In this document: positions 2,912 to 47,033 of the stretch, in pieces
How the letters are laid out: every line of letters starts with the position of its first letter
Numbering within the stretch: position 1 is the first letter of the stretch
NCBI GenBank assembly: GCA_024278595.1
Contig: JAJRSW010000061.1
Span: forward strand, 4,225 to 68,224
Length of the DNA: 64,000 bases
Direction: 5' to 3'
From: Fidelibacterota bacterium
GTDB taxonomy: Bacteria; Fidelibacterota; UBA8477; JABMPR01
Translations under genes and position numbers: made by a program
Notes under the pieces: generated by a model
Told to the model about the DNA's origin: nothing
Database searches by the model: none
The model's input: the letters and a program-made list of their open reading frames with translations, nothing else

Positions 2912-3784
2912 TTCACCGCCATGGAGCGCTATGTACTGATCATTTTAATTATGGGTCTGTTCGGTGTGAGCTTTGGGGCTCCCCTGGCTCGCTTTGTCCC
3001 TGAACTGGCGGCCCTGACGATTGCCTTTTGGCGCATGGCCGGGTCTTCAGCTTTGCTCTGGACCTCCGCTTCTGTCAAAGCTCAGGGAAGCTTGAGCCGT
3101 AAAAAAATTCCCATCATTAGCATAGCTGGTATATTTCTGGCTCTGCACTTTGCCTGTTTTTATTCGGCAGTCAAGGTGGCACCGATTGCCAATGCCACTC
3201 TCTTTGCCACGCTGGCACCGGTGTTTACCCTGATCTATGAGCGATTCATATTAAAGCGAAAACTACCCCTGGGAGCCCTGGTTGGATTGTGGCTGGCGAT
3301 TGGTGGCGCAGTGCTGGTGCAGGGAGGAGCCATACAATTTGGAACAGGAGAATCACTTGGAAATCTACTGGCCCTGGCCAGCTCCGTATTTATGGCTGTC
3401 GTGCTCATCATTGCCGAGCAAATACGGAGAACAACTACCACGATCATGTTCACACGTTGGCTATATTTTTTTGCCGCAGTGACGCTTGGTGCGATTGCTG
3501 TGGTAGCGGGTGTCGAATTAGGATTTGGCCAACCGGATCTCAAATGGATCCTTGCTCTGATCATTCTGCCGACCCTTATCGGTCATAATAGCATGAATTA
3601 TGCAGTTAGATATTTACGCCCTACCATTGTTGGATCCATGCCCTTTGGGGAACCGATCCTGGCAACCATACTGGCCTGGTTCCTATTTGGCGAATCAATT
3701 GGTTTACACGTAGTGTTCGGTGGCGGTGTTACCTTAACCGGTTTAGTGATTCTTACCTTAAAAAGAGGGTCAGGGGACCAATAG
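2912..3784 (+). CDS. DMT-superfamily (EamA-like) transporter; the start codon is uncertain and the longest ORF begins at 2801
   Basis: About 290 aa with ten hydrophobic segments arranged as two EamA-like halves. It is the only plus-strand gene inside the glycan locus. Confidence 0.6.
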   Translation, partial: FTAMERYVLIILIMGLFGVSFGAPLARFVPELAALTIAFWRMAGSSALLWTSASVKAQGSLSRKKIPIISIAGIFLALHFACFYSAVKVAPIANATLFATLAPVFTLIYERFILKRKLPLGALVGLWLAIGGAVLVQGGAIQFGTGESLGNLLALASSVFMAVVLIIAEQIRRTTTTIMFTRWLYFFAAVTLGAIAVVAGVELGFGQPDLKWILALIILPTLIGHNSMNYAVRYLRPTIVGSMPFGEPILATILAWFLFGESIGLHVVFGGGVTLTGLVILTLKRGSGDQ

Positions 3785-4402
3785 CTGAAGCTTGCCGTCC
3801 TGAATCAGTTCTTCAATAAAAGCTTTTTCACCACTCACATCATGTTTACCGGCCTTTCGGATAACCCCCTTATCCTTTAGCCAGCGCATAGCCGGAGAGT
3901 CGAAATAGTGACTGGTGCTGCCGACAAAGAAATCAAAACCATGCAAGGTTACATCCAAACCCAGTAGATAGAAAAAATAGATGGTGAAGAAGCCGGTGGT
4001 AGGACGATCAATACCACATTCACTTTCCATGTTTTGCATCATATTCAGGGGCAACATGAAGTACTTGTCAGTCCCTAGGCGACGTTGAATACGATCCATA
4101 ATAGTTTCATCTTTGTGCTCCAGAACCACCGGCGGGATCATCACTAAGATGTTTTCAGGGAGCTCAAAACGTTTCTTCAGTCCCTGGTTGGCACCATTCA
4201 CCCAGATATCAGTGCGTGAGCCGACTCTGGACTCCAAACCCGTAGTTACAAAGTTATTGATACGTACAACCTGGTCAAAATTATCGATACGCTGACCCAA
4301 ATCATAAGTAGCAGCACTGGGTCCGTTTCCCATGATCAACAGGGAATTATTTACGAGTGAATGATATGATTCAGGCAGGTCTTGTAGATTAAACCCGGAC
4401 AT
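3770..4402 (-). CDS. GT42-family (Cst-I/Cst-II-like) sialyltransferase-like glycosyltransferase
   Basis: LIMGNGPSAATYDLGQRIDNFDQVVRINNF aligns with the Campylobacter Cst-II N-terminus IIAGNGPSLKEIDYSRLPNDFDVFRCNQF. PTTGFF...YLLGLDVTLHGFDFF matches Cst-II ITSGVY...LGYKEIYLSGIDFY. Confidence 0.7.
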   Translation of the reverse strand: MSGFNLQDLPESYHSLVNNSLLIMGNGPSAATYDLGQRIDNFDQVVRINNFVTTGLESRVGSRTDIWVNGANQGLKKRFELPENILVMIPPVVLEHKDETIMDRIQRRLGTDKYFMLPLNMMQNMESECGIDRPTTGFFTIYFFYLLGLDVTLHGFDFFVGSTSHYFDSPAMRWLKDKGVIRKAGKHDVSGEKAFIEELIQDGKLQLLVP

Positions 4403-19215: not shown

Positions 19216-19722
19216 ATGTACGCGATTATTCAAATTGCAGGGAAACAGTTCAAGGTGAAACCTGGCATGGTCCTGAACGTTCCGACTCTCGATATTGAAC
19301 CTGGTAAAAAGGTCAACGTCGAGCGCGTACTGGCTTACTCTGACGGTAAAAATCTTGAGGTCGGCACTCCAGAGCTGACCAACGTAGCGATCGATGGAAC
19401 AGTAGTTTCACATGGCCGCGCTAAAAAGATCATTGTTTTTAAAAAGAAACGCCGCAAGGGATACCAGAAAAAACAAGGACACCGCCAGGGTTTTACACAG
19501 ATTAAGGTAGCAGGTATTGCACCGGCAAAACCAGCTGCCAAGAAAACAGCAGCCAAGGCTGACACAGCAGTAAAAGCTGAGAAAAAGCCAGCTGTCAAGA
19601 AGGCCACCGCCGCCAAAAAACCCGCCGCCAAGCAAGCAGCCGCTCCTAAAAAACCGGCTGCCAAAAAAGCAGCAGCAAAACCGGCAGCGAAAAAGGCCCC
19701 TAAAGCTGATAAAGGAGAGTAA
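19216..19722 (+). CDS. rplU: 50S ribosomal protein L21 with a ~65-aa Lys/Ala/Pro-rich (histone H1-like) C-terminal extension
   Basis: [17 protein letters not shown] is the canonical L21 N-terminus. The C-terminus is [11 protein letters not shown]... low-complexity sequence. Confidence 0.95.
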
Positions 19723-19724
19723 CC

Positions 19725-19982
19725 ATGGCTCATAAAAAAGGTGTTGGTAGCTCCAAAAACGGTCGCGAAAGTCATTCCAAACGTCTGGGCACAAAAGCCT
19801 ATGGCGGAGAATGGGTTTCAGCCGGCAGCATTATCATCCGTCAACGTGGAACAGCGATCCACCCCGGCCAGAATGTTGGTATCGGTGGGGATGACACATT
19901 GTTCGCCAAGATCGACGGGATCGTGACCTTCGAACGCAAGGACCGAAAAAGAAAACAGGTAAGCGTCTATCCAGAAGCTTGA
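19725..19982 (+). CDS. rpmA: 50S ribosomal protein L27
   Basis: [22 protein letters not shown] is the canonical L27 N-terminus. Confidence 0.95.
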
Positions 19983-20003: not shown

Positions 20004-20037
20004 AAAATCCCTCGAGTGATCGGGGGATTTTTATTTT
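20004..20037 (+). terminator. Rho-independent terminator after rpmA
   Basis: AAAATCCC(tcgagtgatcgg)GGGATTTT stem followed by TTTTATTTT. Confidence 0.7.
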
Positions 20038-20165: not shown

Positions 20166-20388
20166 AGGCTTTGTAAGAGGCTATTATTAGGTGATGAAAA
20201 TTAGTGCCGGTCAACTTAGTAGCTGTTTTATAAAATAGACAAACCGTTAAAACGGTTTCTTGATAGCTCGATGATAATATGCCCACGACTGAAGTCATGG
20301 GTTTCTTTTGAATGCTTGATGATCAGAAATCCACGACTTAAGTCGTGGGCTTTAATATGCTTAGTAAACCTGTAACCGTTTTAACGGT
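20166..20388. repeat. Cluster of five short palindromic hairpin elements (REP/MITE-like) in the rpmA-moxR intergenic region
   Basis: AATAATAG-n13-CTATTATT at 20166-20194. AACCGTTaaAACGGTT at 20237-20252 and its inverted copy AACCGTTttAACGGTT at 20372-20387. CCACGACTgaAGTCATGG at 20282-20299. Perfect 16-mer CACGACTTAAGTCGTG at 20330-20345. The hairpins sit in ~46-bp degenerate tandem units. Confidence 0.6.
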
Positions 20389-20480
20389 TTATGGGTAGAA
20401 CTAGTGTGAAACGATAAGTTGTAATGTAATAACTTTGAAATACCCAGGTAAGTTATTCGATAAACTGGCTCGGAGGATGT

Positions 20481-21461
20481 GTGACCAAACCAAACAATGA
20501 TGTACAAAAACTAACTGAAATGGTAGCCGCTTTTGATCGATTAAAAGCTGAGCTTGCCAAGGCGATCGTCGGACAAGATTCAGTGATAGAGCAATTGATC
20601 ATTGCCCTGTTGGCTCGCGGTCACGCACTATTGGTCGGTGTCCCCGGCCTGGCAAAGACCCTGCTGATAAAGAGTCTATCCGAAGTCCTGGACCTAAGTT
20701 TTTCAAGGATTCAGTTCACCCCCGATCTCATGCCCTCTGATATTACGGGGACCGATATCATTGAAGAGGATCATACAACTGGAAAACGGGAGTTTCGCTT
20801 TGTCAAAGGCCCCGTATTTGCCAATATCGTACTGGCTGACGAGATCAATCGGACACCCCCCAAAACTCAGGCGGCCCTTTTAGAAGCTATGCAGGAGCAT
20901 CGGGTGACAGCCGGGGTCGAGAGCTATGTACTGGATGAGCCATTTTTTGTATTGGCCACCCAAAACCCCATTGAACAAGAGGGGACCTACCCCTTGCCTG
21001 AGGCTCAGCTGGATCGATTCATGTTCAATTTACGCGTAGAATACCCCAGCCGAGATGAAGAACGAAGGATCGTCAGCGAGACCACCTCAGGAGCGACAGT
21101 AAGCCTGAAAAAGATCCTGGACCAACCAGCAATTTTGGAGTATCAGGAACTGATCAGGCGGGTTCCTGTGGCGGACAATGTCATCGATTATGCGGTTGAT
21201 CTGGTGAGTAAGACTCGCCCTGCCGAAGATGATGCACCGGATTACATAAAAAAATGGGTTGGCTGGGGTGCCGGTCCCCGGGCTTCTCAATATTTAATCC
21301 TGGGCGCCAAAACCCGGGCAGCCATGGCTGGCAATCCAACCCCTTCAATTGATGATGTGAAGGCCGTCGCTTTACCAGTACTACGACATCGGGTCCTGAC
21401 CAATTTCAATGCAGAGGCCGATGGGGTCACAGTGGATGAGATCATTAAGAAACTGCTGTAA
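20481..21461 (+). CDS. MoxR-family AAA+ ATPase (AAA_3)
   Basis: LLVGVPGLAKT Walker A, DEINRTPPKTQAALLEAMQE and the rest of the sequence match MoxR/RavA-like ATPases. GTG start with a GGAGGA Shine-Dalgarno site. Confidence 0.9.
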   Translation: MTKPNNDVQKLTEMVAAFDRLKAELAKAIVGQDSVIEQLIIALLARGHALLVGVPGLAKTLLIKSLSEVLDLSFSRIQFTPDLMPSDITGTDIIEEDHTTGKREFRFVKGPVFANIVLADEINRTPPKTQAALLEAMQEHRVTAGVESYVLDEPFFVLATQNPIEQEGTYPLPEAQLDRFMFNLRVEYPSRDEERRIVSETTSGATVSLKKILDQPAILEYQELIRRVPVADNVIDYAVDLVSKTRPAEDDAPDYIKKWVGWGAGPRASQYLILGAKTRAAMAGNPTPSIDDVKAVALPVLRHRVLTNFNAEADGVTVDEIIKKLL

Positions 21462-21597
21462 TAGTTATCGTTGCCACAAAGGCGCCAAGACTCGAAGGAT
21501 CACAATCCCCAAGATTTTTCTTTGTGACTTAGTGTCTTTGTGGCGAAAAGAATGTAACGAAATAGGTGGGTTGCATTAAAAAGAAAAGGATATTGAT

Positions 21598-24480
21598 TTG
21601 AAGCCAAGAGTTTGGATTATTATGCTCTTGTTGTTTGTGCAGGGAGCTCAAGCCCAGAATATGTGGATGTGGAATCAAAGAACGCATCCAGAATTAAAAT
21701 GGCAAACCCTGGAAACTGAACATTTTAATATTCACTATCACCAGGGGCTTGAAACTATCGCCTACAAGGGTGGTCAGATCGCTGAACAGGCTTACCAACC
21801 AACCTTAGATCAATTGCAAGTCGCAGATTTTGGTAAAACGGATATTGTTTTCTCCGCTGAAGATGAGATCATGAATGGTTTCGCCATGCCCACAAATCAG
21901 ATCTTTATCTGGGTCAATCAAAATGATGTTGCCGGCAATTTTGGCGGATCAGAAAAATGGTTGAAACTGGTGGTCACCCATGAATTTCAGCATGTGGTTC
22001 AATTTCAGGCTCACCACACATGGACCGGCATCCTGGGTGCAATATCTATCCCATCCTGGTGGATGGAGGGTATGGCAGAGTATATGACCGAGGTCTGGCG
22101 GGTAGGCCGGAGTGACTCAAAGATGAAGATCCACACCTACCGAAATACTATGGACCAGTTAAATGCTCATGACGATGGCTATGCCAAAGTTCTTTATCTG
22201 GCCTGGAAATATGGTGACTCGACGCTGGTAAAAATATCAAATCATCGTCAATACATCATGGAGAAAGACCAGAAATATCCCTACTGGTATGATTTTAACA
22301 AGGCATTCAAAGCCGCAACAGATCAGACCCTGGCCGATTTTAACGAGGAGTGGCGCCGGGTGATGAACACTTATTACTATGGCTATAAAGCCCAGAAGGA
22401 AATGATCTCAGAAATTGGTGAGCCGTTGGTCTTAAAGGGTTTTTCCAGAGTGTTGGCTGCTTCCATCTCACCGGATTCCTCCAAGATCGCTGTGGTGGGT
22501 CGGACAAATTCTAAGATGCAGGATTACGGGCTGTATGTTATGTCCACTGACTCCACTCATAAAATTGAAGAGGTCCATTATGGTCGCTTTAGTGGTATAC
22601 CGGCCTGGTCGCCGGATGCGAAACAGATTATCATCTCTGAATATCACCGGGGGAGCAATGGATCTCTGCTAAACGATCTGCGTCTGGTAGAGCTTGCCAC
22701 TGAAAAGATCCGCTGGATAACCCATGATTTGAGGAGTCTGCACTCCGTTTTTTCACATTCCGGCAAAGGTGTGTTTTTTGTGGCTCACCCTGGAGAAACC
22801 TCCCAGATACACTACCTGGAACTCAGTTCTTCAAAACAGATCCAGATCAGCAAGTTTGTTGGTGATGTGCAAATTCAGAGTCTGAACTTAGCTCCTGATG
22901 GCCAGAAATTGACGTTTATGATCCAGGAAGAATCAGGTGATGTTAATATTGCAATTATAAACCGTGATGGTAGTGGGTTTAAAAAAGTGACCGACGATCC
23001 TGAAGAGGATCTATTGCCAGTCTGGCGTGCTGACGGTCAGGCTATTATCTATACCTCCTTTCGGAACTCCACCCCCAACCTGTATCGGGTGGCGCTTGAC
23101 AGCCTGAGAATTACCCAGATGACGGATGTGGCTGAGGGTATTTATTCACGCCAGAGACTACCAGGAACAAATCAGATCATTGCCAGCACTCTGGCTGATG
23201 TTGACACCGTTAGGCTTCGAATCGTTGATGCAGACCGCGTTGCTCCAGAGCTAGTTTTGAATTTACGTGAGCCATACACTGCCTGGCGCACCAAGGCTCC
23301 CGATGTCCAGATTCCAGCTACAAATTATGCTGCTAAGCTGGTGGCGAAAGAACCGCATTCATATAAAGCTCTTAAATCAGTACGCCCTCTGTTGCACCTG
23401 ATCTGGCCCGATGCAGAGGGCGTGTTTGCAGTGGCAGCCTACAATGATGCTCTGGGAAAACATTTGTATCAGGGTGGCGGGGTTGTGGATTGGTCTGGAG
23501 CTTTGGCTGGCGGCTATCTTGGCTATACCAACCTTCAATTTCAACCGGTGCTGAATTTTTATGCCAGCAAGAATTTCAGCTTTAATCTGCGTCGTACCTG
23601 GGGTGCGACTAATTTTGAAGTACTTGATGGTGTTGGAGTAATGGCATTACTACCCATGAATTCTGGTAACTCATTGAGCTCAAATCATGACCTGATGGCA
23701 CATCTACGACTGGTCAAGAGGACAGTGCTGGATGCCGGTTCGGATAACTGGGTTCGCGATCTTTCATTTCCCCAGAGCAAGGAAACCAATCTAAGCTTGA
23801 CCTGGCGCTGGCTGAAACGGCGTCCGGGTAGTGCTGATATTCAACTGCCGACTAATGGCGTAGGTGTACTGGCACACATTGAGTCCACCATCCCGGAGAT
23901 CTGGGGCAACGGTGATTATCAGAAAATTTGGGCTGAAGGGTTTTTTAACCAGAAGATCCCTAAGACACCTTTTGTACTTTACAACCGCAGTAAATGGGAG
24001 CGCCACACCGGTAATATCCTGGCTCAGGATTCCATCGGTTTCATGTCCACAGCACCCCTTTATTTTTCACCGGGAACGATTTTGAATGTAGCACAAGCTG
24101 GTATTTTCGATCTACCGGAGAGCTATAATCTGCGTGGGCAGACAGGTGATCACGCTGCCTCTGAATTGATCTATAATGTCACTGAGCTACGCATACCCCT
24201 TATGCGATCATTTCCGGCTCAATTTTTCATGCTCCAATTCACAGGCTTTACCGGAGCGCTATTCCACGATCTCGGTTATTTACCAGAAACGGATGAAGTA
24301 TTTACGACCATGGGAGCCGAGCTGAAGTTTAACTTAAGTATTGGGAAAATAGCTCTCATAACGCTTTCAACAGGCCTGGGTGGTAATGCTGACTACTGGG
24401 AAATGATTCTGGAAGATCCAGACAGGCTGGACATTCAGCAGGACTCATATTTTCGGCTTGCTCTGGTGAATCCATTTTGA
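21598..24480 (+). CDS. Large secreted/outer-membrane protein: signal peptide, peptidase-MA-like HExxH...E domain, PD40/TolB-like beta-propeller repeats, and a C-terminal beta-rich region ending in Phe
   Basis: Signal peptide MKPRVWIIMLLLFVQGAQA. VVTHEFQHV...WWMEGMAEY is a zincin-like HExxH with a downstream Glu. WSPDAKQII and LAPDGQKLTF are PD40 repeats. The C-terminus ...RLALVNPF has a terminal aromatic residue typical of OM beta-barrels. TTG start with AAGGA upstream. Confidence 0.6.
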   Translation: MKPRVWIIMLLLFVQGAQAQNMWMWNQRTHPELKWQTLETEHFNIHYHQGLETIAYKGGQIAEQAYQPTLDQLQVADFGKTDIVFSAEDEIMNGFAMPTNQIFIWVNQNDVAGNFGGSEKWLKLVVTHEFQHVVQFQAHHTWTGILGAISIPSWWMEGMAEYMTEVWRVGRSDSKMKIHTYRNTMDQLNAHDDGYAKVLYLAWKYGDSTLVKISNHRQYIMEKDQKYPYWYDFNKAFKAATDQTLADFNEEWRRVMNTYYYGYKAQKEMISEIGEPLVLKGFSRVLAASISPDSSKIAVVGRTNSKMQDYGLYVMSTDSTHKIEEVHYGRFSGIPAWSPDAKQIIISEYHRGSNGSLLNDLRLVELATEKIRWITHDLRSLHSVFSHSGKGVFFVAHPGETSQIHYLELSSSKQIQISKFVGDVQIQSLNLAPDGQKLTFMIQEESGDVNIAIINRDGSGFKKVTDDPEEDLLPVWRADGQAIIYTSFRNSTPNLYRVALDSLRITQMTDVAEGIYSRQRLPGTNQIIASTLADVDTVRLRIVDADRVAPELVLNLREPYTAWRTKAPDVQIPATNYAAKLVAKEPHSYKALKSVRPLLHLIWPDAEGVFAVAAYNDALGKHLYQGGGVVDWSGALAGGYLGYTNLQFQPVLNFYASKNFSFNLRRTWGATNFEVLDGVGVMALLPMNSGNSLSSNHDLMAHLRLVKRTVLDAGSDNWVRDLSFPQSKETNLSLTWRWLKRRPGSADIQLPTNGVGVLAHIESTIPEIWGNGDYQKIWAEGFFNQKIPKTPFVLYNRSKWERHTGNILAQDSIGFMSTAPLYFSPGTILNVAQAGIFDLPESYNLRGQTGDHAASELIYNVTELRIPLMRSFPAQFFMLQFTGFTGALFHDLGYLPETDEVFTTMGAELKFNLSIGKIALITLSTGLGGNADYWEMILEDPDRLDIQQDSYFRLALVNPF

Positions 24481-24586
24481 TTGAAGATTGACCATTCCCA
24501 CCTCGTCAGACTGAGCGGAGTAGCAGTATATAGATTTGTGGCAGAACTAAAAAATCTAAATCCTGAAAGGCTGAAATAAGCAAAAA

Positions 24587-25483
24587 TTGAACACTGATAA
24601 ACGAAAATATCTGAACCCCCAAACCCTGGCCACCCTGGCCAATATGCAGCTCAGGGCACGCATGGTGGTGGAGGGCTTCATTGTGGGCCTGCATAAGAGT
24701 CCCTATCACGGATTTTCGGTGGAGTTTGCTGAACACCGCGCCTACGGCCCTGGTGATAATCTGCGCTATCTGGATTGGCGACTTTATGGCAAAACGGATC
24801 GTTTTTATGTGAAACAGTTCGAGGAAGAGACCAATCTAAAGGCGCATCTCATGTTGGATATGTCAAAATCAATGGCTTATGGGTCTGCTGACATCACAAA
24901 GTTGCAGTATGGCAGTTATCTCTCCGCCGCCTTGACCTATTTACTATTACGGCAACAGGATGCTGTTGGCCTGACCCTCTTTGATACTGAGATCCGAACT
25001 CATATCAGGCCCTCTTCCAGACCATCCATGTTAACCAATATATTGTCGCATCTGGAGCGTGTGGAGCCTGGGGAAGAAACCGCTATTGGGCATAGTCTGC
25101 ACCACCTGGCAGATCGCATTCATCGCCGGGGGCTGGTGATCATCATTTCTGATATGCTGGATGATCTGGATAATATTTTGAATGGGCTCAAGCATTTTCG
25201 TCACGACCGCCATGAAGTGCTGGTATTCCACATTCTGGATCCCCGTGAAGTAGATTTTGCCTTTCATGCCCAGGCTAAATTCAAAGATATGGAATCAGGT
25301 GAGATCATGGCCACGGAGCCCTGGCATATCCAACGGGATTATCAGAATGCCGTTAAACAATTCCGGTCCAATCTAGGTGCTAGTTGCCGGGAACAGCGTG
25401 TGGACTATGTGCCCCTGACCACCGATCAATCGCTTGATGTGGCGCTATTGGCCTATCTGAACAAGCGCCATTCCGTCCGGTAG
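24587..25483 (+). CDS. DUF58 (vWA-fold) protein, the usual partner of MoxR ATPases
   Basis: LQLRARMVVEGFIVGLHKSPYHGFSVEFAEHRAYGPGDNLRYLDWR is the DUF58 signature. TTG start at 24587. Confidence 0.8.
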   Translation: MNTDKRKYLNPQTLATLANMQLRARMVVEGFIVGLHKSPYHGFSVEFAEHRAYGPGDNLRYLDWRLYGKTDRFYVKQFEEETNLKAHLMLDMSKSMAYGSADITKLQYGSYLSAALTYLLLRQQDAVGLTLFDTEIRTHIRPSSRPSMLTNILSHLERVEPGEETAIGHSLHHLADRIHRRGLVIIISDMLDDLDNILNGLKHFRHDRHEVLVFHILDPREVDFAFHAQAKFKDMESGEIMATEPWHIQRDYQNAVKQFRSNLGASCREQRVDYVPLTTDQSLDVALLAYLNKRHSVR

Positions 25484-25662: not shown

Positions 25663-27879
25663 ATGAGAATATTTCAAGCCACAATAGCTCGACCATTACG
25701 GTCTGTTCTAATTGCCGCCTTTTACATGGGTGTGGGGCTTTCGCAGCAATTGCCCCAAAATCAAACCAGCATCAGTGGCCGGGTTGTCGATGCTCGGTCG
25801 GGTTCTGGTCTACCAGGTGTAAATATTCAGATTCAACGTAGTCCTTCAGGGACCACCTCGGATTTGGAGGGTTATTTTCAACTTTATGATCTGCCCCCTG
25901 GAAATTACGGTCTTTCCTTTTCAATGATGGGCTACGCTCCATACATTGAAAAAAATGTAGCAGTTGTCGCTGGCATTCCCACTGAGCTACAGATCGGATT
26001 AAAACTGAATATTCTGGCTTCACCGCAAGTCGTTGTCACCTCAAGTCGTAAAGAGCAGGATATTATGGAGTCCCCGTTTTCAGTCTCTGCCATTGGTCCA
26101 AGAGAGATCAAGGCAAAAGCAGTCGTTAATATGATTGACATTTTATCCTATGAGTCAGGTGTATCTACCATCAAGGGCCAATTGAATATTCGAGGAACCT
26201 CAGGCTATACCATGGGTGCGGGTACCCGTTCGCTGCTACTTGTGGATGGAATTCCCATGCTGGGGAGTGCCGCTGGAAACGTCACCTGGGGAATGATCCC
26301 AAGTTCTGAAGTGGATCGGGTGGAAATCGTTAAATCAGGGGGCTCGGCCCTGTATGGCTCCAGTGCCATGGGCGGTGTCGTGAATATTATAACGCGGAAT
26401 GCACCTCCTGAACCAGAAACCAGAATTTCCACTCAAATAGGGGTTTACAGTCATCCCAGGATCGAACAATGGCGGTGGCGTGATAAGCGTGGATTCGTAT
26501 ACAATACGGAGCTATCCCATTCAAGACGTTTTGGGGAGCATGCGGCCTGGCTGCGGATCCAAAAGCGCCGTGATGATGGATTTATGGAACTGAATTGGGA
26601 AGAAGCGTTAAATGTTTCCGGTAAGATCAAACTGAATCTTGGGAATGCCCACTCCGCGGCAGTTTTTCTTAATGCCCTGGCTGACAAATCTGGATTAACC
26701 TCTATTTGGAAGAGTTCTGCCAACCCCTTCGAGGCACCTGAGGGATCAAAAAATGATCTAACCGAAGGCACAAAAACAATTCTGAACGGTCACTACAACT
26801 ACGTGTATTCGCAAGATGTGGTTATTAAAACCAAAGTAAGTGGCTTTTGGAACACCTGGGTTGGATCTGGTGCAGATCCTAATTTCTCCACTGAATCACG
26901 TTATTATGAAGAGATCCAGTCCAGCAAAACCTGGCCAGGCAAGCTCACCGGAATCTTTGGGCTAACCCTGCAACAGAATGGCGTAGATGCCCAGATCTTT
27001 GGAAAACACAACAGCAACTCGCTGGCTGCCTTTCTCTTGTTCGAGAAAAAAATTCACCAATTCACCCTTTCTACTGGAAGTCGCTGGGAAACCTACAGGG
27101 TAGACGGTAATGATCAGGATCAGGTGTTTTCACCTCAACTGGCCCTCAACTGGAAACCAGCTCCCTGGATGGCTTTTCGAATTTCAACGGGTCAGGGCTT
27201 CCGGGTGCCCACAGTAGCGGAAATGTTCACCTCAGCTCGTAGAAGTATTTTCACCGTTGAACCAAATCCAGATCTCGTTTCAGAGACCAGCGTAAATCGT
27301 GAAATCGGAATTGTCCTCCTGAGTGGTCAAACAAGATTCCTGGATCTGTTTAAACTTGATGTAGCTGTTTTTCACAACCGGTTTGAAAATTTTATTGAAC
27401 CCATCCCAGACAGTAGTGCTGTGATCCATTTTGAAAATATTTCAGATGCCCGAATCTTGGGACTGGAAATGGGTCTGGGGATTAGCGCCTTTAATAACCT
27501 GCTGGATTATAAATCGGCCTTTACCATCTTGGATCCTGTGGAACTGGATGCACAGGGTGATGTGTTGGACACGCTATCCTATCGTCATCGATATCATTGG
27601 GTGAGTTCCCTGGGAATACATTATTGGGGCTTGGATGCATCGCTTGAATATCGGTATTTGAGTCGAATAGAGAGCGTTGAACTTTTTCAGGAAAACGTGT
27701 TTACAGAACAAGATAAACGGGTTCCAATTCATGTGTGGAACGCTGGATTAGGCAGTGAATATGGACCCTGGCTCTTTCTGTTCAGAGTTGAAAATATTTT
27801 TCAATATTATTATACCCAGCTGGAAAGAAATATTGAGGAAGAACGGATTTTCACTTTTACTGTGGAACGTCAGTTGTGA
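25663..27879 (+). CDS. TonB-dependent outer-membrane receptor with an N-terminal carboxypeptidase-regulatory-like domain
   Basis: ISGRVVDARSGSGLPGVNIQI...EGYFQLYDLPPGNY matches CarbopepD_reg. The plug segment has ...VVTSSRKEQD...SPFSVSAI... and a beta-barrel follows. 738 aa. Confidence 0.8.
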   Translation: MRIFQATIARPLRSVLIAAFYMGVGLSQQLPQNQTSISGRVVDARSGSGLPGVNIQIQRSPSGTTSDLEGYFQLYDLPPGNYGLSFSMMGYAPYIEKNVAVVAGIPTELQIGLKLNILASPQVVVTSSRKEQDIMESPFSVSAIGPREIKAKAVVNMIDILSYESGVSTIKGQLNIRGTSGYTMGAGTRSLLLVDGIPMLGSAAGNVTWGMIPSSEVDRVEIVKSGGSALYGSSAMGGVVNIITRNAPPEPETRISTQIGVYSHPRIEQWRWRDKRGFVYNTELSHSRRFGEHAAWLRIQKRRDDGFMELNWEEALNVSGKIKLNLGNAHSAAVFLNALADKSGLTSIWKSSANPFEAPEGSKNDLTEGTKTILNGHYNYVYSQDVVIKTKVSGFWNTWVGSGADPNFSTESRYYEEIQSSKTWPGKLTGIFGLTLQQNGVDAQIFGKHNSNSLAAFLLFEKKIHQFTLSTGSRWETYRVDGNDQDQVFSPQLALNWKPAPWMAFRISTGQGFRVPTVAEMFTSARRSIFTVEPNPDLVSETSVNREIGIVLLSGQTRFLDLFKLDVAVFHNRFENFIEPIPDSSAVIHFENISDARILGLEMGLGISAFNNLLDYKSAFTILDPVELDAQGDVLDTLSYRHRYHWVSSLGIHYWGLDASLEYRYLSRIESVELFQENVFTEQDKRVPIHVWNAGLGSEYGPWLFLFRVENIFQYYYTQLERNIEEERIFTFTVERQL

Positions 27880-29259: not shown

Positions 29260-30564
29260 ATGAAGAAAATGATGGGCATGAGCTTGTTACTGCTGATGAC
29301 GATTCAAGTGTTTGCCGGAGGAATGGTGACCAATAGCAATCAGTCAGCTGAGTACATGCGTACGTTGAACCGGAATGCTTCTGTTGAGCTTGATGCGGTT
29401 TACTTCAACCCGGCTGCAGTTGCAACCCTGGATGAGGGTCTGCATTTGTATCTTAGTAATCAGACGATCTTTCAAACCAGGACAGTAGTTGCTGACTTCC
29501 CGACTTATAATAACGATACTTTTGAAGGCACTACCTTTGCACCGGCCTTCCCAAATCTGCACCTTGCCTATGTCATGGGAGCGATGGCTTTTTCCGGTAG
29601 TTTTCAACCTATTGGTGGTGGTGGCAGTGCTGAGTTTCCAGATGGCTTACCCGCATTTGAGAAGACGCTTGCCGGCTTTGCCCAGGGAACACCAGCAAGT
29701 CTACTCGATGCGGCTCTTGAACCATTTGGTACCATCAATGGATATTCTGTTGATGCTGCTTTTAATGGTTCATCACTATATCTCGGATTTCAAGGAAACT
29801 TTTCCTATGCCATTAGTGATATGATCCAGGCGGGGTTAGGTGTACGCTTTATTAGCGCCAAGAACACCTATGAGGGTGGCTTGGAAAACCTGACTTTGAA
29901 CACCAGTTCGGGAACCGATATCACTACGGCCATTGCCGGTGCTTTGCTTGCGGATAAATTTGTGGAAGCAGAGAAAACAGGAACGACCATGATCTATGTT
30001 GGTAGTCTCAATTTGAATCTATCTGAGGCACTGAACCTGTCACTTCGTTATGAGACCATGGGTGCCTTGGAGTTGACTAATTCAACCACTACAGATGATA
30101 TTGATATGTTCCCAGACGGCGCGGTCTCAAATGCTGATATTCCAGCTCAGGCTTCGCTGGGAGTCGGGTGGCAGCAAGATATGATGCGTGTTGAGTTGAG
30201 TGCTGACTACTGGTTCAACACGGATGTGAACTGGGATGGACAGGAAGATAAGGTCAGTAACAATTTTGAGGCAGGTATCGGCGTTGAATACGGGCTGAGT
30301 GAATCACTGGTTGTCAGTGGTGGCTATCTATATGCTGAGACTGGTGCTACAGATGAATATCAATCAGATCTAAGTTATAGCTTAAGCTCAAATACAGTTG
30401 CAATTGGAGGAAAGTACATTCTTTCAGATAAGAAATATGTCAGTTTTGGTTTATTCGACACTTTCTATGAAGATGGTAAGAACTATGCTCCGATCCCCAA
30501 GAATCAGGAATACTACAGCAAAACTTCAATTGGTTTCGCTCTGGGATATTCCCATAGTTTCTAA
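29260..30564 (+). CDS. FadL/TodX/OMPP1-family outer-membrane transporter for hydrophobic compounds
   Basis: Signal peptide. The FNPAAVATL motif (family NPAG motif). 434 aa. Terminal ...GYSHSF with C-terminal Phe. Confidence 0.65.
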   Translation: MKKMMGMSLLLLMTIQVFAGGMVTNSNQSAEYMRTLNRNASVELDAVYFNPAAVATLDEGLHLYLSNQTIFQTRTVVADFPTYNNDTFEGTTFAPAFPNLHLAYVMGAMAFSGSFQPIGGGGSAEFPDGLPAFEKTLAGFAQGTPASLLDAALEPFGTINGYSVDAAFNGSSLYLGFQGNFSYAISDMIQAGLGVRFISAKNTYEGGLENLTLNTSSGTDITTAIAGALLADKFVEAEKTGTTMIYVGSLNLNLSEALNLSLRYETMGALELTNSTTTDDIDMFPDGAVSNADIPAQASLGVGWQQDMMRVELSADYWFNTDVNWDGQEDKVSNNFEAGIGVEYGLSESLVVSGGYLYAETGATDEYQSDLSYSLSSNTVAIGGKYILSDKKYVSFGLFDTFYEDGKNYAPIPKNQEYYSKTSIGFALGYSHSF

Positions 30565-30619: not shown

Positions 30620-30886
30620 CAACCACCTCTACAGAATAGGTACATTTATTTTTCAGGTATTCGCGTGAGTTGAGCGGAAGAGCCGTATGAGGAAAATTTT
30701 CAAGTACGGTTCTGTGAGAGGCCTGTGCCATCAGGTTGTCTGGCCTACTCCCCATTAGTGAGGCTGGAGGATCGGTTCAGAAAACATCATTCCGACCGAT
30801 TTCAAGTATTGCCGGTAAAATGAAAACAGTTTTATAAATCACTGTGCTAAATACTTTATCACATCGAAAAATTAAGGGAGAACAAC

Positions 30887-32269
30887 ATGAAACGCACCCT
30901 CCAAATTGGCTTATGCTTGATATTTACTTTTGGCTTTGCTCAGGAATTCAAAGCCTTATCCTCCAGTAATGTTTTAACCTATGCTAAAACCTTTGAGCTG
31001 GATGACACAAATATTGCCCGGCAGAACGCCCTGGCCAATAACAGTATTCGCTCACTTTCCATTGACCAGGCCACCCGTATTAAACAGCAGCATCTATTCT
31101 CCCATAAGATTGAGGTCAAAGGCATTAGCAATCAAAAAAGTAGTGGACGCTGTTGGCTGTTTGCCGGATTAAATATTCTGCGCCCGACTATGATCGATCG
31201 CTATGACCTGGAGGATTTTGAATTCTCGCAGAACTTCCTGTTCTTTTATGATAAACTTGAGAAATCTAATCTTTTTCTCAACCAAATGATTCTCATGCGC
31301 GAAAGAGACATCCATGATCGGGAGTTGGAATTTTTACTGGATTCACCCATCGGTGATGGGGGCCAATGGAATATGGTGGTGGACCTGGTGGCAAAATATG
31401 GACTGGTGCCCATGACTGCCATGCCTGAAACCTTTGCCAGTTCAAACACTGGTGACATGAACCGCCTGCTGCGTAAACGCCTGCGCAAAGCTGCCGCTGC
31501 CATTCGCAGTGCTGATGCTCCAGCCAAACGCGTTGCCATTCATCAAAAGACCATGACCGATATTTACCGGATCCTGGCTTTGTCCCTGGGACAGCCACCT
31601 CAGACATTTACCTGGCAGTATGAAGATGAAGACAAAAAATTGAGTAAAATTAAAACTTATACTCCGGCCCGGTTCAGGGATGATGTGGTCAAACAGGACT
31701 TGTCTGATTACATCTATCTGTTGCAGAATCCCACCAAGGAATATTATCAGACCTACAGTATCAGTCTGGATCGCGATATGATCGAAAAGCCTGATATGTC
31801 AGTGTTAAACCTGCCCCTCGATGCCATCAAGGCTCAAACTCTGAAGGCTGTTTTGGATGATGAGCCCGTTTGGTTCGCCTGTGATGTGGGTCAGGAACAT
31901 CTGGGTTCTGATGGACTCATGGTGCGGGGTATTTATGATTATGAGGCTCTGCTGGGTGTAGATTTCGGGTTGAGCAAAAGTGAGCAGATCCTCTATGGCG
32001 AATCAATTCCAACCCACGCCATGGTATTTGTGGGCGTGGATGTGGTTGATAAGCAAGCCAGACAATGGAAGGTCGAGAATTCCTGGGGCAAGGATCGGGG
32101 AAAAGACGGCTATTGGCTCATGGATAATGCCTGGTTTGATCAATACCTCTATGGTGTGATCCTGCCAAAAAAATATCTGGATAAAAAGACACTGGCAGCA
32201 TTGGATAAAAAACCCATCGTCCTGCCCCCCTGGGATGCCATGTACAATATGCTCCGTGGACCAGAATAA
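30887..32269 (+). CDS. pepC: Aminopeptidase C (bleomycin hydrolase, peptidase family C1B)
   Basis: SSGRCWLFAG catalytic Cys motif. 460 aa. Full-length PepC-like. Confidence 0.85.
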   Translation: MKRTLQIGLCLIFTFGFAQEFKALSSSNVLTYAKTFELDDTNIARQNALANNSIRSLSIDQATRIKQQHLFSHKIEVKGISNQKSSGRCWLFAGLNILRPTMIDRYDLEDFEFSQNFLFFYDKLEKSNLFLNQMILMRERDIHDRELEFLLDSPIGDGGQWNMVVDLVAKYGLVPMTAMPETFASSNTGDMNRLLRKRLRKAAAAIRSADAPAKRVAIHQKTMTDIYRILALSLGQPPQTFTWQYEDEDKKLSKIKTYTPARFRDDVVKQDLSDYIYLLQNPTKEYYQTYSISLDRDMIEKPDMSVLNLPLDAIKAQTLKAVLDDEPVWFACDVGQEHLGSDGLMVRGIYDYEALLGVDFGLSKSEQILYGESIPTHAMVFVGVDVVDKQARQWKVENSWGKDRGKDGYWLMDNAWFDQYLYGVILPKKYLDKKTLAALDKKPIVLPPWDAMYNMLRGPE

Positions 32270-43268: not shown

Positions 43269-43844
43269 ATGCAGTCAGTATATACAAAAAGACAACTCCA
43301 GATCATTCACACTGCAGTGGAACTAATTGCAGCAGGGGGGATGTCCTCACTAACCATGAATCATATTGCTGCTAAAATAGCTGTGACAGAACCAGCCCTT
43401 TATCGTCACTTTAAGAGTAAGAAGGAAATCCTCGAGGGTGTCATCAATCTGCTGCGCCACAGTGGTCAAGTTCCAAATACAGCGGGCAAATCAGGTTGGG
43501 AGCTCATCGAAAGCACCATGCAAAGTCGAATCGCCAGCTTTAGCGAAACACCGGGGCTAGCAGCAATTATTTTTTCTGAAGAAATTTTTTCAGGGGACAA
43601 TGATCTGTCGCAACAGGTAAACGCCATGATGAGCGAGACCCTGGAGCGGTTCATCACAGTCATACGCTTAGCTCAGCGAGATGGAACGGTACGTCAGGAC
43701 ATACAAGCCGAGCAAATTGCCTTAATGGTCATTGGGTCGTTTCGGTTTTTAGTTACCCAATGGCATTTATTTGATAATAATTTTGATCTTAGCAAACGGG
43801 GAACAGCTCTTTTTGCAGATCTTAGAAAACTACTATCCGTCTAA
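43269..43844 (+). CDS. TetR/AcrR-family transcriptional regulator
   Basis: N-terminal HTH LTMNHIAAKIAVTEPALYRHFKSK. 191 aa. Confidence 0.85.
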   Translation: MQSVYTKRQLQIIHTAVELIAAGGMSSLTMNHIAAKIAVTEPALYRHFKSKKEILEGVINLLRHSGQVPNTAGKSGWELIESTMQSRIASFSETPGLAAIIFSEEIFSGDNDLSQQVNAMMSETLERFITVIRLAQRDGTVRQDIQAEQIALMVIGSFRFLVTQWHLFDNNFDLSKRGTALFADLRKLLSV

Positions 43845-43865
43845 TAAATTTTTGTATAATATTAA

Positions 43866-43881
43866 GTTAGTGATTAATAAC
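43866..43881. promoter_or_regulatory. Second putative TetR operator half-site upstream of the MMPL transporter gene
   Basis: AAGTTAGTGATTAATAAC shares AAGTTAGTGA...TAAC with the site at 43237. Confidence 0.4.
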
Positions 43882-43894
43882 AAACGGAGTCAAT

Positions 43895-46180
43895 ATGAAA
43901 ACACTAAGAGATAAAATCCTGGATCACCCCTACCTGGTTATGGCCGTGATCCTGATCATAACCATCTTTTTCTTTAAGCAGATTAAAGACAAAGGTCGCA
44001 TGGAAACAGACCTTGATAAATACATGCCCCACAATCATCCGGCCTTTGTCTATAGTGATGCAGCTGAGGAAATGTTCGATATCAAAGATGGAATCATCAT
44101 CGCCATTGAACATCCGGAATCGGTATATAACCCGGAAACCCTGCAGAAAATCAAGGATATCACCAAGGCACTGCAAAAAATGGATGAGATCCATAAGGCC
44201 GATGTAACATCCCTGTATACCGCTGACAATATTATTGGCACTGAAGCAGGAATGGATGTTAAAGCCTTCTATAAACGGGTGCCAAAAGCTGAAAAACTTG
44301 CTGCCCTGCGTCAGGAAGTGGCCGGAAATGATATGGTGGCAGGTCGGCTCATCTCAGAAGATGAAACGGTTGCAGTGATTATTGCCAGAATCGATGATGA
44401 TGTCTTTACCCAGGATTTTTATAAAGCAATAATTGATCTGGGGGTAAGCTTTGAAGGCCCAGAAAAAGTTTATGTTGCCGGTAGTCCAATAGTTGAAGGT
44501 ACCATGGCTTTACTGGGACCGGCAGATATGAAACGGATGGTTCCGGTGGTAATTTTGGTAATCATTTTAGTGCTTCTCGGTGTTTTAAAAAGCTTTAAGA
44601 GTACTCTGTTCACCTTCCTCGTGGTTGCCATAAGTTCAGTGTGGACGTTTGGTCTGATGGCACTCGTTGGTGTCCCGACCTATGCAGTATCAACCATGAT
44701 ACCAGTAATGCTGATCGCCATTGGAGTTGCCGATGGGATTCATTTTTACAGCCATCTGGGAATTTTCCTCAAGAAAAACCCTGGAACTGAAAAGTTGGTG
44801 GCCGTCAAGGATATGCTGCATGGAATGTGGAAGCCGATTGTCATGACATCTGTCACAACGGCAGTTGGTTTTATCTCCCTACTCACCTCACAGGTTTACC
44901 CGATTGAATACTTTGGCCTGTTCACGGCTTTTGGAGTTTTGGCAGCCATGTTGCTGACACTGGTGCTCATTCCAGCCGGGATCATGGCCTTTAATCTTCC
45001 TAAGTTGAGCGTAAAAGGTGCAGCTCACAATTCTGCCGTGGCTGATAAGTTTTCAGCAGCACTACTTTCACAGAAAAAGCTGACCTGGCTGGTAACGTTA
45101 GCCCTGGTGATGGTTTCTGTGTGGGGCATTAATAAAGTTTGGATTAACTCCAGTTTCCTGGACAAGTTCGAATCAGATTCAGATATTGTGCAAACAGATA
45201 CCTTTATCAATGCCAAGTTTGGTGGTACCTCAACCATTAATGTCATTCTGGAAACTGAAGTGGCTGGAAAATTCAAACATTCAGATATTTTGACACTTGT
45301 TGATAAAATGCAGGATGATGTTGAAGCCTTAGCTATGGTTGGCAGCTCTTTCGCGCTTACCGATTACCTGAAACGCATGAACATGGTCATGAACGCAGAT
45401 GATGAGGCGTTCAATACCATCCCGGACAACGCAGAACTCAATGCCCAGTATCTACTTCTGTATGAGATGTCAGGCGATCCTGAGAATTTATGGAGAGTGA
45501 CCGACTACGATTATCGTCGTCTTAATGTGACATTCCAGGTCAAGAGTGATAACTCTAAGGTCATAAATGACGTCTTAGACCGGATTGAGACTTATCGTAC
45601 ACCATTGGCTGAGATGGGAGTTGAGCTGAATTATGCTGGCTCGGGATACAAAGCTCTGATATTTACAGACTTGATCCTGGAGGGTCAAATCAGGAGTCTC
45701 GTGCTCTCCCTGGTCATCATTGTAAGCTTATTAGGATACATGTTTAAAACCATTAAGGCTGGATTAGTTGGTAGTTTTCCCATCGTGATCACCGCCCTCA
45801 TTGGGTTTGGAGTCCTGGGAGTCTTTAATATCCCACTGAGTACAACCACAGCCCTGCTTTCCAGTATCACGATTGGAATTGGAATCGACTATGCGGTTCA
45901 CTTTCTGGATAGATACCGTCTGAATAGACAAGCTGGTTTGGCCATGGAGAAAGCTGTGTCAGAAACCATGGACCATTCAGGACGAGCCATTGTCTTCAAT
46001 GCCGTTGTAGTCATTGCCGGTTTTATGGTCTTATTAGCATCTGTGTTCCCACCAAACCGGGCCTTGGGAGCCTTGGTCTCATTAAATATGTTTATCAGTT
46101 TTGTAGGGACCTTGACAGTTATGGTTCTATTGGTTGTTAAATCCGACTTATTCAACCCAAATGATAGAGGTGTAAAATGA
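43895..46180 (+). CDS. MMPL/RND-superfamily exporter (HpnN-like, sterol-sensing-domain type)
   Basis: 761 aa with 12 TM segments in a 1+5 / 1+5 arrangement with two periplasmic loops, the MMPL pattern. Confidence 0.8.
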   Translation: MKTLRDKILDHPYLVMAVILIITIFFFKQIKDKGRMETDLDKYMPHNHPAFVYSDAAEEMFDIKDGIIIAIEHPESVYNPETLQKIKDITKALQKMDEIHKADVTSLYTADNIIGTEAGMDVKAFYKRVPKAEKLAALRQEVAGNDMVAGRLISEDETVAVIIARIDDDVFTQDFYKAIIDLGVSFEGPEKVYVAGSPIVEGTMALLGPADMKRMVPVVILVIILVLLGVLKSFKSTLFTFLVVAISSVWTFGLMALVGVPTYAVSTMIPVMLIAIGVADGIHFYSHLGIFLKKNPGTEKLVAVKDMLHGMWKPIVMTSVTTAVGFISLLTSQVYPIEYFGLFTAFGVLAAMLLTLVLIPAGIMAFNLPKLSVKGAAHNSAVADKFSAALLSQKKLTWLVTLALVMVSVWGINKVWINSSFLDKFESDSDIVQTDTFINAKFGGTSTINVILETEVAGKFKHSDILTLVDKMQDDVEALAMVGSSFALTDYLKRMNMVMNADDEAFNTIPDNAELNAQYLLLYEMSGDPENLWRVTDYDYRRLNVTFQVKSDNSKVINDVLDRIETYRTPLAEMGVELNYAGSGYKALIFTDLILEGQIRSLVLSLVIIVSLLGYMFKTIKAGLVGSFPIVITALIGFGVLGVFNIPLSTTTALLSSITIGIGIDYAVHFLDRYRLNRQAGLAMEKAVSETMDHSGRAIVFNAVVVIAGFMVLLASVFPPNRALGALVSLNMFISFVGTLTVMVLLVVKSDLFNPNDRGVK

Positions 46181-46944
46181 AAAACTTAAAATTTATAAGT
46201 ATAATATTGATTCTTAGTGGAGTCCTGTTTGGTCAAACACCAAATGGCTTGGAGATCATTGAAAAGACCTATAACCGCCCAACCAGTAAAACTCTGGAGG
46301 CCAATCTTACCATGGTTCTGGAAAACGCCAGAGGTGTACAGCGGGTGCGTGAGATCAAGCAGTTCACCAAGGACTTTGGTGAGGTAGAGAAGAAACTCAT
46401 GATCTTTCGAAAGCCTAAAGATGTTAAGAATACCACCTTCATGAATTGGAGTTTTGATGATGGAAGGGAAGATCAGTGGATCTATCTGCCAGCTCTGAAG
46501 AAGATCAAGCGCATCTCCAGTGATAGTGACAGTGATTATTTCATGGGCTCTGATTTTACCTATGATGACCTGGGTGATCGCCACCCTTCAGAAGATACTC
46601 ACAGGCTAATCGGTGAAGAAACTATTGACGGTAATGATTGCTATATCGTTGAGAGTATTCCATTGGATGAAGAGAATATGTACTCAAAAACGGTTACCTG
46701 GATTATTAAGGATAAATGGATCGGCTACAAAAAGGAGTTTTATGATGAGGATGAAGAATTCTTAAAACAACTCAATCTCGTGAAGTACGAAGAGTTTGAC
46801 AAGGTTATAGTACTCAGCGAAGTGAAAATGAAGAATGAGCAAAACGGCCATAGTACTATCATGCGTCTCAGCGATCTGGTTATCAATAAAACTATTGCTG
46901 ACAACATGTTCACAGAAAGAATGATGAAGCGGGGATTAAGATAG
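46177..46944 (+). CDS. Outer-membrane lipoprotein-sorting (LolA-like) protein associated with MMPL transporters
   Basis: Signal peptide. 255 aa. Start overlaps the MMPL stop (ATGA). Matches the LolA_like family usually encoded next to MMPL exporters. Confidence 0.6.
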   Translation: MKNLKFISIILILSGVLFGQTPNGLEIIEKTYNRPTSKTLEANLTMVLENARGVQRVREIKQFTKDFGEVEKKLMIFRKPKDVKNTTFMNWSFDDGREDQWIYLPALKKIKRISSDSDSDYFMGSDFTYDDLGDRHPSEDTHRLIGEETIDGNDCYIVESIPLDEENMYSKTVTWIIKDKWIGYKKEFYDEDEEFLKQLNLVKYEEFDKVIVLSEVKMKNEQNGHSTIMRLSDLVINKTIADNMFTERMMKRGLR

Positions 46945-47033
46945 TTTGTGAGTTGCTTGAGTCTTGCTGAGACTGACTGACAAGGTGTAGACTCGAAGCG
47001 TGATACTCTAAAACAAGGGATTGAGGTAGATCA

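Follow-up and report, generated by a model that had tools for sequence, protein, structure and literature searches.

A predicted WD40-like Omp85 protein encoded between moxR and DUF58 genes in one clade of Marinimicrobia

We analyzed a 64-kb stretch of DNA, hereafter called the window, from Marinimicrobia (SAR406/Fidelibacterota), a marine lineage, in which a gene for a MoxR ATPase is followed on the same strand by a large open reading frame (ORF) and then by a gene for a DUF58 protein (Table 1). We refer to the large ORF and its product by the working name BIG. The genes moxR and DUF58 are usually adjacent; here they are 3,125 bp apart, and this interval contains BIG. We know of no earlier report of a BIG-type gene placed between the two.

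Table 1. Positions of genes, predicted domains and sequence motifs at the moxR-BIG-DUF58 locus in window coordinates.
Feature	Position	Strand	Description
rplU	19216-19722	+	Ribosomal protein L21, 168 amino acids
rpmA	19725-19982	+	Forms a unit with rplU (19216-19982)
Terminator-like hairpin 3' of rpmA	20004-20031	+	12-bp stem, then T-run
moxR	20481-21461	+	326 amino acids, MRP-type AAA+ ATPase
MoxR Walker A	20637-20660	+	GVPGLAKT
MoxR Walker B	20838-20852	+	DEINR
BIG	21598-24480	+	960-amino-acid precursor; TTG start with AAGGA ahead
BIG signal peptide	21598-21657	+	Residues 1-20, MKPRVWIIMLLLFVQGAQAQ
BIG gluzincin (clan MA) peptidase-like domain (predicted)	21670-22407	+	Residues ~25-270, mostly helical
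BIG EDEIMNG	21859-21879	+	Conserved strand
BIG HEFQH	21979-21993	+	Residues 128-132
BIG EGMAEY	22066-22083	+	Residues 157-162
BIG TolB-like PD40 β-propeller (predicted)	22420-23232	+	Residues ~275-545, six-bladed
BIG Omp85/BamA-like barrel (predicted)	23383-24477	+	Residues 596-960, 16-stranded; 16 long strands at 596-954
BIG NLRGQ	24127-24141	+	Long loop between barrel strands 11 and 12
BIG LALVNPF	24457-24477	+	C-terminal β-signal
DUF58 gene	24587-25483	+	298 amino acids, von Willebrand factor A (vWA) fold
DUF58 DMSKS	24857-24871	+	Metal ion-dependent adhesion site (MIDAS) motif
TonB-dependent receptor gene	25663-27879	+	CarboxypepD_reg, Plug and barrel domains (Pfam)

The two outer genes encode a MoxR ATPase of the classical kind and a plain DUF58 protein. 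MoxR matches the Pfam families AAA_3 (E 5e-63, 211 bits) and AAA_lid_2 (E 5e-15), its match to bpMoxR reaching only 47 bits, and carries both Walker motifs. The DUF58 protein matches DUF58 (E 1e-46) and VWA_2 (E 5e-9) and has a MIDAS motif. Neither protein has a signal peptide. A Pfam scan of ~50 of the larger ORFs in the window revealed no vWA gene of the BatA/BatB kind, and MoxR and DUF58 are here a reduced, Bat-less pair of the MRP type.

BIG itself is predicted to be an exported protein of three domains. Its precursor begins with a Sec-type signal peptide that reads MKPRVWIIMLLLFVQGAQA before a glutamine (...GAQA, then Q), with an AxA-type signal peptidase I site and, as read from the sequence, neither a lipobox cysteine nor a twin arginine; the N-terminal helix is a region of low predicted local distance difference test (pLDDT) score in the AlphaFold2 model. 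Downstream of it lies the domain with the HEFQH and EGMAEY motifs. In an alignment of 106 BIG sequences, H128, E129, H132, E157 and E161 are invariant, which points to selection on the residues of zinc-binding and catalytic type. E157 and E161 are located 29 and 33 residues past H128, so that the HExxH motif is accompanied by a downstream glutamate as predicted third zinc ligand. Modelled on their own, residues 1-275 (pLDDT 86) matched the peptidase domain of M9 collagenase and many M1 aminopeptidases (TMq about 0.5, E 4e-5 to 1e-3), and BIG and its homologues gave weak Pfam matches to the HExxH-protease families DUF2268, M9 and M48. According to the model, the N-terminal domain has a gluzincin fold, for which peptidase activity is predicted.

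For the middle of the protein, Pfam and NCBIfam returned PD40 (E 8e-11) as well as TolB, the latter matched in part (E 7e-22), and a profile search of the Protein Data Bank (PDB) with the full-length alignment found TolB structures (E 2e-23). This search retrieved only propeller proteins, with no BamA or peptidase at E<=1. In the AlphaFold2 model, which was built with 106 homologues (pLDDT 90, predicted template modelling score 0.86), DSSP assigned 24 strands in six blades to the propeller region, and Foldseek against the PDB placed TolB first (E 1e-11). In the model, residues 545-595 form a linker that has only short helices and contains no POTRA-like element; Pfam did not reveal a POTRA domain in BIG or its homologues either. 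The C-terminal part was modelled as a barrel that Foldseek matched to BamA (8xnb_A, E 6.6e-8, TMt 0.56, 418 columns; also 8qn4_A). The canonical loop-6 motif of Omp85 proteins is (V/I)RG(Y/F), and the loop sequence NLRGQ resembles it, the RG core alone agreeing; these two residues, R846 and G847, are invariant in the 106 sequences, and the terminal F960 is conserved in at least 90% of them. The Omp85 family PF01103 matched 5 of 20 aligned homologues (best E 1.4e-9) and is precomputed for many others, some of which are named "BamA/TamA family" by NCBI.

These results can be compared with an earlier note on this DNA, which was made from the sequence alone. Its three same-strand ORFs, with the large gene splitting moxR and DUF58, were recovered at the positions and on the strand it gave. 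Pfam (AAA_3, DUF58, VWA_2) agrees with its MoxR and DUF58/vWA calls, and the absence of BatA/BatB vWA genes after DUF58 that it reported extends to the ~50 ORFs scanned. Its description of BIG as having a signal peptide, a zincin-like HEFQH...EGMAEY domain and PD40 repeats is borne out by motifs, Pfam and the model. It had further guessed that the β-rich, Phe-ending C-terminus is an outer-membrane barrel, and had proposed a Pfam search and a structure prediction as checks: the former yielded PD40/TolB, the latter a 16-stranded, BamA-like barrel that supports the guess. By contrast, the architecture, which the note did not recognise as described, is already in the literature as the "WD40-like" subfamily of Omp85 proteins defined by Heinz & Lithgow (2014, Front Microbiol 5:370; PMC4104836).

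Members of this subfamily, reported from Caldithrix, Rhodothermus and Chloroherpeton, combine PF01103 with PF07676 repeats, show fold-recognition matches to BamA, TolB and M1 aminopeptidases, and lack POTRA domains (PMC4104836). A later summary mentions Omp85 proteins with "divergent WD40 and peptidase domains" (PMC11358297). BIG fits this description with its predicted BamA-type barrel and with a TolB propeller and M1-like fold that replace POTRA, and it also has the RG core and an aromatic C-terminus. Since layout and phyla agree, BIG belongs, on the basis of the predicted structure, to the catalogued WD40-like Omp85 subfamily as an additional member. The HExxH motif, the gene context and Marinimicrobia are not discussed for the subfamily in PMC4104836. 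A literature search joining Omp85, PD40 and metallopeptidase gave no direct description, and it was Omp85-subfamily terms that led to this paper.

The family is large and uniform. We found 831 BIG homologues, and the N-terminal domain alone retrieved 2,120 representatives at 50% identity (467 at E<=1e-10), almost all of which are 930-1,080 amino acids long and carry this domain N-terminally. The homologues span the Fibrobacteres-Chlorobi-Bacteroidetes (FCB) group, including Gemmatimonadota, Calditrichota, Ignavibacteria, Bacteroidota, Eisenbacteria and others, and across these phyla the HExxH motif lies near residue 130 and the last residue is F or Y. We take BIG to belong to a family of outer-membrane proteins that has been passed on vertically within the FCB group. 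In Gemmatimonadota, its gene is found in a housekeeping block with rpsF and rplI, with rsfS ~7 bp upstream, a SPOR-domain lipoprotein gene ~45 bp on the 3' side and smc past the latter. In six loci of Ignavibacteria, Calditrichota or Bacteroidota type (L021, L023, L040, L064, L067 and L071), a gene for a BamB-like PQQ_2 protein (E 3e-37; 12775-13917 in L064) follows the BIG homologue after ~14 bp. These neighbours are circumstantial evidence that fits a core envelope role and a putative function related to the β-barrel assembly machinery (BAM).

The predicted domains suggest how such a protein could work. The BIG precursor would be exported by the Sec pathway and its C-terminal 16-stranded barrel inserted into the outer membrane, with the peptidase and the propeller held on the periplasmic side, where BamA carries its POTRA domains. 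There, the two domains would most likely bind polypeptides of the envelope, for example stalled outer-membrane proteins, lipoproteins or peptides, and either trim or degrade them, and BIG would represent a cis-fused analogue of BamA, BamB and a BepA-type protease. An opposite topology, compatible with the gene-order argument developed below, would make BIG a type Vd-like autotransporter whose barrel exports its own peptidase and propeller to the cell surface, where they digest extracellular proteins whose products enter through the TonB-dependent receptor encoded downstream. An N-terminal enzyme domain joined to an Omp85 barrel does parallel the layout of the patatin PlpD, and Heinz & Lithgow left the topology of POTRA-less Omp85 proteins open (PMC4104836). 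A TonB-dependent receptor gene follows DUF58 in the window and in the related loci L001, L005 and L085; L087 and L090 have lost this neighbour. Propellers of the TolB PD40 type usually occur as periplasmic modules, BIG lacks the POTRA domain that in PlpD separates the passenger from the barrel, and the tight neighbours in other phyla are periplasmic or envelope proteins (the BamB-like protein and the SPOR lipoprotein). We therefore regard surface export as improbable.

We next turn to the gene order. The order moxR-BIG-DUF58 recurs in independent assemblies in which BIG is 73% (L005), 71% (L001/L002), 62% (L085/L086), 53% (L087) and 42% (L090/L091, DUF58 71%) identical to that of the window, so it is not an assembly quirk. 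The flanks of L087 differ from those of the window, as do both flanks of L090/L091, which lacks rplU-rpmA. In all other loci examined, BIG lies outside this arrangement, namely in L088 (47% identical), L019 (48%), L003, which comes from a complete Fidelibacterota genome (44%), L004 (34%), L006-L018 and 65 loci of other phyla. No moxR lies within the flanks (up to 10 kb) of ~70 BIG loci outside the clade, and only one of them, L066, has a DUF58 gene nearby, 8 kb off and on the opposite strand. A tblastn search found no second BIG copy in the window. In a neighbour-joining tree, the six independent loci with the three-gene order form one clade with L090 at its base, and their sister group (L019, L088, P0053) does not have this order. 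Because the sandwiched copies are monophyletic and have an unsandwiched sister, one rearrangement followed by vertical inheritance would account for them, which points to a single event in one Marinimicrobia clade.

The junction between moxR and DUF58 was also examined in 80 DUF58-centred metagenome loci and in L092, with gaps below 400 bp counted as adjacent. L092, whose DUF58 is 59% identical to that of the window, has the gene 50 bp after moxR and contains neither BIG nor Bat genes. Together with 33 of the 80 metagenome loci, this gives 34 loci with moxR directly upstream of DUF58. A further seven metagenome loci have 830-2,937 bp separating the two genes, and 25 have no moxR in at least 1.1 kb upstream of DUF58 (in seven of them, moxR is missing from the whole ±10 kb). 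The junction is occupied by an N6/N4 DNA methylase and an MjaI-like endonuclease in L128 and L132, by Asparaginase_2 in L127 and L132, by a TPR gene and a HEPN gene in L116, and by an amino-acid permease in L154. The restriction-modification pair is of type II, its methylase bears an SNase-like tail, and it is inserted at 7425-9333 in L128 and at 7085-8996 in L132. L107 is a close relative with a DUF58 93% identical to that of the window, and here a gene for a HAD hydrolase lies between BIG and DUF58. The presence of unrelated genes in other lineages indicates that the junction is permissive to insertion, and a gene inserted there need not be a functional partner; such permissiveness calls for caution in inferring function from interrupted pairs.

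These comparisons bear on what the earlier note made of the arrangement. It had proposed looking for the three-gene order in related genomes, where we found it kept, within one clade. Marinimicrobia-like relatives with adjacent moxR and DUF58 and with BIG elsewhere (L092 and the 33 metagenome loci) are what the note itself had named as a refutation, and its likening of the locus to ternary conflict systems centred on MoxR and vWA proteins (Kaur, Burroughs, Iyer, Aravind 2020, eLife 9:e52696; PMC7159879) does not stand, the genes being unlinked in ~70 lineages and linked in one clade, and the defining features of those systems being absent. Read in this way, the locus would be a variant anti-invader system with BIG as the propeller and effector component. 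The ATPase does match bpMoxR above the cut-off, and BIG does unite a β-propeller with a peptidase-like domain, peptidases being common effectors in such systems (PMC7159879). AAA_3 is nevertheless by far the better match, and the P-loop is the ordinary GVPGLAKT, not the GxxxTAKS variant reported for two classes of ternary systems (PMC7159879). The vWA protein is a plain DUF58 protein with no effector or adaptor fusion, and VMAP, iSTAND, FtsH-type and EAD domains were not found in Pfam and NCBIfam scans of the locus proteins. Furthermore, BIG is predicted to be exported and belongs to a conserved family that lies amid housekeeping genes and shows no variable effector domains, and the three-gene association is confined to one clade. 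With neither a cytoplasmic effector or adaptor component, nor a conserved association, nor a variant P-loop, this explanation was rejected as highly improbable.

A closer rival is that the three genes form a functional module, in which cytoplasmic MoxR and DUF58, the latter as a MIDAS adaptor, act on the BIG precursor before its export by holding it, loading it with metal or targeting it, or in which the three proteins form a co-regulated envelope-stress unit; BIG would then be the missing client of the Bat-less pair. Several observations favor this possibility and weigh against a mere change in gene order. The trio is retained from 100% down to 42% BIG identity and is the only block kept clade-wide while both flanks turned over (L087, L090), an outcome that a real functional module, if selected for co-expression, would produce as well. 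The genes share one strand and are tightly spaced in relatives, with spacers of 5-18 bp measured in the L005 and L087 trios and a BIG-DUF58 gap of 15-16 bp in L001 and L085, as in operons. In the window, the moxR-BIG spacer is 136 bp long compared to ~18 bp in L005 and L087; neither internal spacer of the trio contains a terminator-like hairpin, and matches to sigma-70-type promoters, being no commoner than in shuffled sequence, carry no information here. Judged from these spacers, the trio is probably transcribed together. The pair has none of its usual neighbours, BatA/B/C not being found among the window ORFs scanned, and MoxR/Bat operons have been tied to stress tolerance in Bacteroidota (PMC11834572). 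Further caveats concern not the module but the reading of BIG and the tree: our literature search found no functional study of the WD40-like Omp85 subfamily, and the barrel of the window protein did not match PF01103 even at E<=10 when its C-terminal 371 amino acids were searched with Pfam, so that its assignment to Omp85 rests on fold and homologues. The neighbour-joining tree, finally, was computed from 128 BIG sequences and carries no support values.

Nevertheless, we consider a module of this kind unlikely. The arrangement has a single evolutionary origin, BIG orthologues in ~70 other lineages and in sister Marinimicrobia have no moxR or DUF58 nearby, and the pair is Bat-less also where BIG is absent (L092). 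Unrelated genes enter the junction, including the HAD hydrolase within the sandwiched clade itself. The signal peptide of BIG is of the Sec and not the Tat type, so the protein is expected to cross the inner membrane unfolded, and cytoplasmic MoxR and DUF58, which bear no export signal, could hardly act on the mature form; direct cooperation of the two with BIG therefore appears unlikely from the sequences. The more specific idea that this clade recruited the pair to serve BIG, an Omp85-peptidase, as its dedicated chaperone or regulator in the cytoplasm likewise seems unlikely to us. If it were true, no client of a MoxR-DUF58 pair of the MRP type without Bat genes would have been identified before BIG, and remodelling by AAA+ and vWA proteins would be tied to outer-membrane protein biogenesis; the MRP-type MoxR-DUF58 chaperones, which are poorly understood, would in that case gain a client.

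Overall, we think it likely that BIG is a WD40-like Omp85 protein and that its position between moxR and DUF58 reflects one inherited gene-order change and not a dedicated three-component machine. At the base of one Marinimicrobia clade, BIG would have come to lie between the two genes, and the trio would have been inherited ever since, probably as one transcript. Its persistence could be explained by a need to express moxR and DUF58 together and an independent need for BIG, in which case only a precise excision would restore adjacency. As a "new system" the arrangement matters little; the gene order serves as a clade marker, its functional meaning being uncertain. The BIG family, whose size and uniformity are documented here, is the more worthwhile subject and offers a good target for work on quality control at the outer membrane of FCB-group bacteria.

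The surroundings of the trio deserve a brief description. Upstream, the strong terminator-like hairpin behind rpmA, whose sequence is kept in L001, L005 and L085, is a predicted boundary that sets the rplU-rpmA unit apart from the moxR unit and is separated from moxR by a spacer of ~450 bp. The L21 protein has a C-terminal tail rich in Lys, Ala and Pro, and its orthologue in L085/L086 gives a faint to weak Pfam match to the histone-like HC2 family. The spacer 5' of moxR (20242-20389) contains two perfect or near-perfect palindromes, each present twice in a symmetric layout (AACCGTTWWAACGGTT at 20242 and 20374, CCACGACTNAAGTCRTGG at 20283 and 20331). Neither has another copy in the window, 173 loci contain none, and relatives lack the segment; it was thus rejected as an operator or RNA element conserved with the system, and may be a small inserted element. 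In the moxR-BIG spacer (21474-21545), a long-range inverted repeat, GCCACAAAG...CTTTGTGGC, received no terminator flag in the hairpin scan and may be another small insertion. Downstream of DUF58, the TonB-dependent receptor gene, which is outside the conserved block, is followed by unannotated ORFs.

Other parts of the window hold further features. A group II intron match (Rfam RF00029, domain V/VI, 51 bits, E 4e-7) is located at 30678-30753 (+), between an unannotated 434-amino-acid ORF (29260-30564) and the gene of a Peptidase_C1_2 aminopeptidase (30887-32269). It has no reverse-transcriptase ORF next to it and could be an intron fragment, either orphaned or ORF-less. At 48616-50814 (+), a 732-amino-acid protein with a patatin domain (E 2e-23), a hydrophobic N-terminal segment as a possible signal peptide and an unannotated C-terminus of ~400 amino acids could be a PlpD-like patatin-Omp85 candidate; yet it ends in ...GLTL and does not match PF01103. 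Glyco_transf_29 is a mostly eukaryotic sialyltransferase family, and a 210-amino-acid ORF at 3770-4402 (-) matches it (E 2.5e-16) beside genes for NeuB and a CMP-sugar cytidylyltransferase (952-2720, -); together, these genes suggest a surface glycan cluster of the sialic-acid type that includes an unusual transferase. Finally, genes for a TetR regulator, an MMPL/RND-like transporter, a LolA-like protein and a DUF1302 outer-membrane protein at 43269-48275 (+) look like an export module for lipids or hydrophobic compounds, as far as their annotation goes.

The locus resembles several known systems in part. Bat operons likewise have an AAA_3-type MoxR gene followed on the same strand by a DUF58/vWA gene with an intact MIDAS motif. 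In Bat operons, however, the pair is uninterrupted and accompanied by the BatA/BatB vWA proteins and the TPR protein BatC, whereas here a 2.9-kb gene splits the pair and none of these genes follows DUF58, either in the window or in L092. The MoxR-vWA ternary systems share with the locus the presence of three linked genes, which encode a MoxR protein, a vWA protein and a product that combines a propeller with a peptidase-like part. Their third component is cytoplasmic, whereas BIG is a predicted exported outer-membrane protein of a housekeeping-like family. PlpD and the type Vd proteins (patatin-POTRA-Omp85) have an N-terminal enzyme domain and a 16-stranded Omp85 barrel in common with BIG; they differ by their POTRA domain and patatin passenger, in place of which BIG has a predicted gluzincin domain and propeller. 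The BAM complex of E. coli with BamB and BepA, in turn, brings together an Omp85 barrel, a propeller and a zinc metallopeptidase on the periplasmic side of the outer membrane. The putative peptidase of BIG is M1/M9-like compared to the M48 type of BepA, and its propeller is of the six-bladed TolB type compared to the eight blades of BamB. We infer the likeness to BAM, BamB and BepA at the level of function: what E. coli distributes over separate proteins, BIG would fuse in one polypeptide.

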